Origin: Escherichia phage ECO26.1 3-1
Length of the DNA stretch: 51,807 nt
Sequence record: OR844578
Reading direction: 5' to 3' (one strand)
Part shown: positions 6,470 to 7,273 of the stretch, piece by piece
Numbering within the stretch: the first letter of the stretch is position 1
Layout of the letters: every line of letters begins with the position of its first letter
Made by a program: the position numbers and the translations under genes
Notes under the pieces: generated by a model
What the model saw: the letters and a program-made list of their open reading frames with translations, nothing else
What the model was told of the DNA's origin: nothing
Database searches by the model: none

Positions 6470-6813
6470 CCAAAATGTTGGCTTTAATAGTTGGCTTGGT
6501 TTCATTTAACGCTCTTGCTAATACTACATATACTGATGTAACGGAGTATACAAACAGAACGGCGTCTGATTATTGTGGTAAAAGTCAAGAGTGTAAAGTA
6601 GATTTTTCACAAAAATTGTTATATGCGTATAAAGACGGAGAAAAAGATGGGGCGTCTAGTAGGTTCAAGGCGTCTACCTTAATTAAAAGATACTATAAAA
6701 AATGGCAAATATTAGAATGCTCGGTGGCGGAACCTAAAGATAAGGCAGCATGCAATTCTATGGTGGACCGTCTAGTTGACTCTTATAATAGAGGACTTGC
6801 AGCAAGTGATTAA
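6466..6813 (+). CDS. secreted/periplasmic hypothetical protein
   Basis: Signal peptide MTKMLALIVGLVSFNALA; 4 Cys. Confidence 0.5.
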   Translation: MTKMLALIVGLVSFNALANTTYTDVTEYTNRTASDYCGKSQECKVDFSQKLLYAYKDGEKDGASSRFKASTLIKRYYKKWQILECSVAEPKDKAACNSMVDRLVDSYNRGLAASD

Positions 6814-7273
6814 AAACTATATCAAGGGCGATATTGTCGCCCTGTTTTCTAAAGGTAATAATATTGCTCATGGGTGTAATTGTTTTCATACAATGGGCGC
6901 CGGTGTAGCAGGCCAATTAGCAAAGGCTTATCCAAAAATTTTAGAAGCCGATAAACTTCAAACTGCATATGGAGACGAGTCTAAACTCGGGTCTTATTCG
7001 GTTTATGAAAAATATTTTAAGACCCATAAAGCTTATTGCTTTAATCTTTATACGCAGTTTGAGCCTGGACCTAATTTTGAGTACTCTGCTTTAATGAATT
7101 GTATAATAGAATTAAATGAATTCGGAAAGAATAAGATAACAAAGCCTGTAATTTATATGCCAAGAATTGGTGCAGGTATTGGTGGTGGAAACTGGGATGT
7201 CATCGAAGAGATTTTAGATACGTATTCCACTAAACTAGAAATTGTGATTGTTGATTGGGAACCATTATTATGA
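6806..7273 (+). CDS. macro-domain protein (TARG1/DarG-like ADP-ribosyl hydrolase fold)
   Basis: AHGCNCFHTMGAGVAG and MPRIGAGIGGGNWDVIEEIL resemble TARG1 motifs; no in-frame ATG before the domain so GTG 6806 (SD GAGGA 10 nt upstream) or TTG 6776/6797 is used. Confidence 0.65.
   Translation: MIKNYIKGDIVALFSKGNNIAHGCNCFHTMGAGVAGQLAKAYPKILEADKLQTAYGDESKLGSYSVYEKYFKTHKAYCFNLYTQFEPGPNFEYSALMNCIIELNEFGKNKITKPVIYMPRIGAGIGGGNWDVIEEILDTYSTKLEIVIVDWEPLL

Follow-up and report, generated by a model that had tools for sequence, protein, structure and literature searches.

What does a stand-alone macrodomain protein do in a T4-like phage? The question is raised by a gene at positions 6806-7273 of a 51,807-nucleotide stretch of DNA from Escherichia phage ECO26.1 3-1 (sequence record OR844578), which as a whole is called the window below. 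An earlier note on this DNA had described the gene as a TARG1/DarG-like macrodomain with a non-ATG start and had suggested that its product reverses ADP-ribosylation by toxins such as DarT, or tunes the ADP-ribosyltransferases of the phage itself. We find that the gene is the ortholog of T4 tk.4, also named adfM. It probably encodes an ALC1-like macrodomain hydrolase translated from a GTG start codon, whose most likely function is counter-defence against DarTG2.

Orthology to T4 tk.4 and probable protection against DarTG2

The genes in this part of the window are arranged in the order regB, vs.1-like transglycosylase, vs, macrodomain gene, tk.3 (DUF7202), two small open reading frames, and tk, which is identical to the order in T4. 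Pfam matches were obtained for the neighbours RegB and DUF7202. The macrodomain protein can be aligned without gaps to T4 Tk.4 (NP_049723), with 131 of 155 residues identical (85%, E 1e-104). Because of the same gene order and this identity, the window gene is the syntenic ortholog of tk.4/adfM in a Mosigvirus, whereas T4 is a Tequatrovirus. The DNA around the gene is 96-99.6% identical to that of T4-like coliphages assigned to the genus Mosigvirus in GenBank, and the complete genome NC_041863 (97% identity) contains only one macrodomain gene. The two proteins agree in length, in the position of their genes between vs and tk.3, in the start position, and in the invariant residues including Q84. 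They differ in the start codon, GTG instead of ATG, and in 24 substitutions, for example at residue 127, which is the family consensus Gly in the window protein and Lys in T4.

The function of the T4 gene was approached genetically. In a T4 transposon library grown on DarTG2-expressing E. coli, tk.4 was the sole significant hit, and a clean tk.4 knockout rendered T4 sensitive to DarTG2; the gene was named adfM (anti-DarT factor Macrodomain) in November 2025 (bioRxiv 10.1101/2025.11.20.689424). The proposal that the macrodomain reverses the action of DarT thus agrees with the genetic protection that the 85% identical, syntenic T4 gene provides against DarTG2, and both the gene and the anti-DarTG2 role of its T4 ortholog are already known from the literature. 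As a discovery, the locus is of low value: the macrodomain has long been annotated in T4, and its role was described in the 2025 preprint. Nevertheless, resistance to DarTG2 is expected of this group of phages, a point that matters when they are applied to E. coli strains carrying that system.

Related counter-defence proteins are known. The chimallivirus PhiKZ encodes a macrodomain protein, gp104, which was independently named AdfM and strips DarT2-made ADP-ribose from DNA in vitro (PMC13309987). The T-even protein AdfN, a NADAR enzyme encoded by gene 30.3, acts against DarTG1 (PMC11825919), and an ortholog of gp30.3 is annotated in the 97%-identical genome.

A macrodomain of the ALC1-like class

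The window protein is a stand-alone macrodomain of the ALC1-like class, which includes TARG1, DarG, and SCO6735. Profile searches gave the macrodomain match that the earlier note had anticipated: the Pfam Macro family (PF01661) scored 28.4 bits against a cut-off of 22 and covered profile positions 2-117 of 118, and hhalign assigned probabilities of 97.9-98.6% to DarG, TARG1, and BT1257. The AlphaFold2 model, built on 61 homologs, has a mean predicted local distance difference test score (pLDDT) of 95 and a predicted template modelling score (pTM) of 0.90. When this model was compared with solved structures by Foldseek, many macrodomains were matched with probability 1.00. The best matches, TARG1 (3e-10), Poa1p, BT1257, and DarG (1e-7), with E-values from 3e-10 to 2e-7, ranked before the MacroD-type macrodomains of coronaviruses and alphaviruses, as expected for the TARG1/DarG type that had been assigned from the sequence. 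The three-layer alpha/beta fold contains two glycine-rich loops at the cleft for ADP-ribose, MGAGVAG and GAGIGGG, which align with the loops of TARG1, DarG, and Poa1p. Homologous proteins are encoded in about 2,700 of 50,697 phage records. The PHROG family 335 ('phosphatase') holds the window protein together with the phage protein Adpp and the Lys-type gp104 of PhiKZ.

The class assignment does not extend to a particular member. The earlier note had placed the protein closest to TARG1 and DarG, which is correct for the class by Foldseek but not by sequence, since the nearest solved structures in a phmmer search were BT1257 (8.8e-11) and Poa1p (8.6e-9), followed by SCO6735, TARG1, and DarG. 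Identity is 23-28% to TARG1 and Poa1p (28% to TARG1), 23% to DarG, and 38% to Adpp of Vibrio phage Gary. The PADLOC model of DarG matched with 4.7e-9 in its macrodomain part only, and the NCBIfam DarG model NF048014 reached 33 bits against a cut-off of 250, over model positions 4-146 of 338 only. DarG proper was therefore rejected by the score of NF048014, the absence of the catalytic Lys, the restriction to the macrodomain, and the neighbouring genes, which are vs and tk.3 and not darT. TARG1 proper was rejected because its Lys84/Asp125 dyad aligns with Q84 and G126, although the protein has the motifs AH(C/G)xxxxCxMGAG and MPRIG(A/C)G in common with TARG1 (4J5R, 4J5S) and Poa1p (6LFQ). Poa1p has Ser at the position of Q84.

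The fold, class, active-site Asn, and presumed substrate, thymidine-ADP-ribose in single-stranded DNA, are common to the window protein, DarG2 (Thermus aquaticus 5M3E and Mycobacterium tuberculosis 5M3I), and PhiKZ gp104. In contrast to DarG2, to which it is 22-23% identical, the window protein has Gln in place of K80, lacks a DarT-binding domain at its C-terminus, and is not encoded next to darT. PhiKZ gp104 has Lys (K78) where the window protein has Gln. With a phmmer match of 9e-25 to 5M3I, it belongs to the genuine DarG-like proteins, and it is barely alignable with the window protein. Therefore, the name AdfM covers proteins from two different branches of the class, the Lys-type gp104 of PhiKZ and the Gln-type Tk.4 of T4, and the Gln-type branch includes a proven phosphatase of ADP-ribose-1''-phosphate (ADPR-1''P).

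Active site and proposed mechanism

Active-site residues were compared by aligning the family profile with Thermus aquaticus DarG, TARG1, and BT1257 using hhalign and MAFFT. Alignments of Protein Data Bank (PDB) entries supplied the sequences of DarG and BT1257, and that of TARG1 was verified against 2LGR. Residues H22, N25, D49, N80, Y82, and Q84 are invariant in the 61 homologs, down to 38% identity, and nearly so in 79 viral loci. Of the viral loci, each one whose alignment covers position 25 has Asn there, three have Gln in place of H22, and 78 have Q84, down to 31% identity. The lone exception to Q84 (locus L028, IMGVR_UViG_2974573495_000001, 3001-3450) has YTK for YTQ, that is, Lys at the catalytic position of DarG and TARG1 within a family of the Gln type.

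Residue Q84 pairs with the Gln of the BT1257 motif 'NMIGQ' in both hhalign and MAFFT alignments, and BT1257 has an insertion of 5-6 residues relative to the window protein right behind this Gln. A phmmer alignment to BT1257, in which T83-Q84 were paired with K-D and the loop was shifted, was superseded by these two. The 54% identity between BT1257 and SCO6735, together with the published description of the latter, indicates that Q84 is presumably the counterpart of SCO6735 Gln85. That residue is essential for the cleavage of thymidine-ADP-ribose, the Q85A variant is inactive, and a water-mediated mechanism was proposed; the cleavage by SCO6735 is faster than that by DarG or TARG1, and the protein rescues E. 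coli from DarT (PMC9411070). Instead of the catalytic Lys found in DarG and TARG1, both SCO6735 and BT1257 (PDB 5E3B and 2FG1) carry Gln, and their identity to the window protein is about 29%. However, they are bacterial housekeeping or stress proteins and not phage proteins, and they contain a 'mobile loop' about five residues longer than that of the window protein, in which the loop has the length found in TARG1 and DarG. Mutation of the Asn equivalent to N25 reduced the activity of PhiKZ AdfM (PMC13309987).

We infer that the window protein removes ADP-ribose from DNA as follows. The DarT2 toxin of the host would ADP-ribosylate thymidines in single-stranded phage DNA. The ADP-ribose would be bound in the cleft of the enzyme, which H22 and N25 form together with the two glycine-rich loops. 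Cleavage of the C1''-N3 bond that joins ribose to thymine would then restore replicable DNA. Since Gln84 takes the place of the catalytic Lys, the reaction probably follows the mechanism proposed for SCO6735, with a water positioned by Gln, and not the Lys mechanism.

Several points weigh against this function. The window protein lacks both the catalytic Lys of DarG and TARG1 and, according to hhalign and MAFFT, the extended mobile loop of the SCO6735/BT1257 subclass. For T4, the enzymatic removal of ADP-ribose from DNA was proposed and is said only to 'seem likely' (bioRxiv 10.1101/2025.11.20.689424). The DarTG2 phenotype was observed for T4 only, and for the Mosigvirus it is presumed through orthology. 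Finally, no biochemically characterised relative outside the T-even phages is closer than the Adpp protein encoded by Vibrio phage Gary (38% identity, pairwise E 1e-23), which is an ADPR-1''P phosphatase and not a DNA glycohydrolase. The earlier note had named missing catalytic residues as an observation that would refute its proposal. The residues of TARG1 and DarG are indeed missing (K80/K84 to Q84, D125 to G126), but this does not refute activity, because SCO6735 is active with Gln at the same position.

Alternative functions

The relationship to Adpp allows a reading in which DNA repair is one of two activities. We speculate, with considerable reservation, that the T-even AdfM clade is no DarG mimic but a Gln-type macrodomain with a dual function, which strips ADP-ribose from DarT2-modified thymidine and also dephosphorylates ADPR-1''P produced by RES-type NADases. 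One active site (H22, N25, N80, Y82, and Q84) could accept any good leaving group at ribose C1'' in a water-mediated reaction like that of SCO6735, and not by the Lys mechanism. A phosphatase side-activity of the window protein is conceivable and would be chemically natural, as a leaving group departs from ribose C1'' in either reaction.

It is unlikely that phosphatase activity is the main job of the protein, which would then turn ADPR-1''P made by RES-domain NADases (aRES) into ADP-ribose. Adpp is a macrodomain protein encoded inside the NARP1 operons of some phages, which dephosphorylates aRES-made ADPR-1''P so that NARP1 can rebuild NAD+ (bioRxiv 10.64898/2026.01.28.702374). The window protein and Gary Adpp have the motifs AHxCNCF, ADxxT.GDxxKLG, NxY(G/T)Q, and PxIGxGxxGGxW in common, including H-x-C-N-C, N-x-Y-x-Q, and the glycine loops. 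The second-best match among solved structures by sequence is Poa1p, and H22 and T29 align with its residues H23 and S30, which are mutated in PDB entries 6LFS and 6LFT. The label 'phosphatase' is attached to the family in GenBank, RefSeq, and PHROG 335, but it stems from the old domain name 'A1pp' and not from an assay.

The gene context argues against a NARP1-linked role. The Adpp gene is located between those of Adps and Namat, and in GRLPWR, whose Adpp is identical to that of Gary, the macrodomain gene likewise lies between the two. Adpp is useful only together with Adps and Namat, and the anti-aRES phenotype took all three genes (bioRxiv 10.64898/2026.01.28.702374). Neither partner was found in the window or in the complete NC_041863 (tblastn, no match below E 0.2), which makes a NARP1-linked role of the window gene unlikely. 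The Escherichia phages that carry Adps in a spread sample of records have genomes of 78-149 kb, and none is T4-sized. A Namat-like gene does lie within 3 kb of the macrodomain gene in 7 of the 79 family loci. These seven loci (L036, L056, L057, L059, L061, L063, and L083; 36-39% identity) have a Namat/NAMPT-like gene and no Adps homolog detectable in the stretches concerned, and they may represent another NAD+-salvage context for the same macrodomain family. The window protein has YTQ where Adpp has YGQ, and this difference between T83 and G83 is the sole visible one; no motif was found that reliably parts AdfM-like from Adpp-like members. A further point against phosphatase activity as the main job is the DarTG2 phenotype demonstrated for the ortholog in T4; the two activities are, however, compatible with each other.

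Protection without catalysis, by binding and inhibition of DarT2 or by shielding of ADP-ribosylated DNA, is improbable. The catalytically dead variants SCO6735 Q85A, DarG K80A, and TARG1 K84A each still inhibit DarT in vitro (PMC9411070), and the Lys of DarG and TARG1 is missing from the window protein. However, the 155-residue protein consists of the macrodomain only, with no counterpart of the DarT-binding C-terminal domain of DarG. Furthermore, homologs down to about 31% identity show little or no variation in residues H22, N25, N80, Y82, and Q84 and in both glycine loops, which indicates selection on catalysis.

Hardly any weight can be given to the remaining suggestion, that the protein reverses or tunes ADP-ribosylation placed on host proteins or RNA by the Alt, ModA, and ModB enzymes of the phage: the 97%-identical genome does encode Alt and two Mod-type ADP-ribosyltransferases, and the macrodomain gene shares its orientation with the block of small genes around regB, vs, and tk to which it belongs, but alt and mod are tens of kilobases away without genomic linkage, and the residue that Alt and ModA target is arginine. 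Neither arginine nor guanine is a substrate of the characterised ALC1-like macrodomains, which act on esters of Glu/Asp and on thymidine (PMC9411070), and in the reference HIDEN-SEQ library tk.4 was a hit on the DarTG2 host only (bioRxiv 10.1101/2025.11.20.689424). This part of the earlier proposal thus found no support.

Reading frame and start codon

The open reading frame has exactly the previously reported coordinates, encodes 155 residues on the plus strand, opens behind a TAG codon (6773-6775), and ends with TGA (7271-7273). Both motifs quoted in the earlier note are contained in its translation, AHGCNCFHTMGAGVAG as residues 21-36 and MPRIGAGIGGGNWDVIEEIL as residues 118-137. As the note had pointed out, no ATG precedes the domain: the first in-frame ATG is the codon of Met30, within the conserved TMGAG motif, and the gene therefore needs a non-ATG start. 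The candidates are TTG 6776, TTG 6797, and GTG 6806.

Comparison with related sequences identifies GTG 6806 as the correct start. In T4, the ATG start of tk.4 falls exactly on the aligned codon, with the 155 residues of the two proteins aligning without gaps. Among 44 homologous viral loci in which the match reaches residue 1, the aligned codon is ATG in 37 and GTG in three, and the latter include the two nearest relatives (97-98% identity). In many of the 44 loci, a stop codon immediately precedes the aligned ATG, which rules out a longer N-terminus. The starts at TTG 6776 and TTG 6797 were thus rejected, since T4 and most homologs begin at the codon aligned with 6806, often right behind a stop. 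GenBank KP869101 and RefSeq NC_041863 are annotated from the codon of GTG 6806. A start at the ATG of Met30 was likewise rejected, as it would remove strands 1 and 2 and the invariant residues H22 and N25.

A GAGGA motif resembling a Shine-Dalgarno sequence precedes the GTG codon (Table 1). It is also present in many homologs and in T4, 11 nucleotides before the ATG. Its assignment is tentative, because the same letters encode the C-terminus of Vs.

Table 1 Positions of the macrodomain gene, its elements, and adjacent genes in the window
Feature	Position	Strand	Basis
Macrodomain coding sequence, ortholog of T4 tk.4/adfM	6806..7273	+	Open reading frame; Pfam Macro match; 85% identity to T4 Tk.4; AlphaFold2 pLDDT 95
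GTG start codon	6806..6808	+	ATG at the same codon in T4; homologous loci; annotation of KP869101 and NC_041863
Codons H22-G-C-N25	6869..6880	+	N25 corresponds to DarG N22 (active-site Asn; hhalign, Thermus aquaticus DarG); H22 corresponds to Poa1p H23 (phmmer)
First glycine-rich loop MGAGVAG, residues 30-36, macrodomain phosphate-binding loop	6893..6913	+	Conserved with TARG1, DarG, Poa1p, and BT1257
Codons N80-L-Y82-T83-Q84	7043..7057	+	Q84 at the catalytic Lys position of DarG (K80) and TARG1 (K84); Gln in BT1257
Second glycine-rich loop PRIGAGIGGGNW, residues 119-130	7160..7195	+	G126 aligns with TARG1 D125
GAGGA, Shine-Dalgarno-like (tentative)	6791..6795	+	10 nucleotides 5' of GTG; read from the sequence
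8-base-pair hairpin AGGGCGAT-ATT-GTCGCCCT, followed by GTTTTCT	6825..6843	+	Codons 7-13 of the macrodomain gene; terminator-like scan
Upstream gene vs (valyl-tRNA synthetase modifier)	6466..6813	+	Open reading frame; annotation of T4 and relatives
Downstream gene tk.3 (DUF7202)	7270..7482	+	Open reading frame; Pfam match; T4 annotation

Neighbouring genes and annotation

The TAA stop codon of vs (6811-6813) lies within the macrodomain gene, and the two genes overlap by 8 nucleotides (GTGATTAA), which suggests translational coupling. The TGA stop codon of the macrodomain gene overlaps the ATG of tk.3 in the sequence ATGA. Because of the overlaps at both ends, the macrodomain gene appears to be part of a translationally coupled string of small genes. 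Of all T4 genes, vs showed the strongest depletion in minimal medium in the HIDEN-SEQ preprint (bioRxiv 10.1101/2025.11.20.689424). The product of the vs.1-like gene (5927-6469) has a sub-threshold match to the SLT transglycosylase domain, of 18.8 bits against a cut-off of 21.3.

The annotation of the macrodomain gene is inconsistent across public records. In the T4 record, the gene between vs and tk.3 is labelled 'phosphatase; Tk.4; contains A1pp phosphatase motif', and in other records the same gene is named 'phosphatase', 'macro domain protein', 'ADP-ribose binding module', or 'hypothetical protein'. Record OR544954 (phage vB_EcoM_EP32a, locus L003), whose positions 1094-1474 correspond to 6893-7273 of the window, is annotated from Met30 and gives a protein of 126 residues without H22 and N25. 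The appropriate annotation would be adfM, starting at the GTG codon.

Elsewhere in the window, megablast found no counterpart for segments 2298-2921, 18337-18581, and 47228-47430 in the genome of O157 typing phage 3, which is otherwise 95-97.6% identical. Small open reading frames encoding 84 and 104 residues are located in the region of the first segment, at 2273-2527 and 2591-2905.

A hairpin within the gene

A scan for promoters found sites no more frequently than in shuffled sequence and was not used. A scan for terminator-like structures detected a hairpin in the early codons of the macrodomain gene (Table 1), with a minimum free energy of -13 kcal/mol and a z-score of -3.0. The hairpin is kept in T4 tk.4 and in every homolog that contains the peptide KGD(I/L)(V/I)AL. 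In one homologous locus (L012), two synonymous codon changes replace one G-C pair by A-U, and one U-G pair is changed to C-G. Within the gene, the hairpin could serve as an internal attenuator or as an element affecting RNA stability. One record, from a Yersinia phage, marks a 'terminator' within the macrodomain gene.

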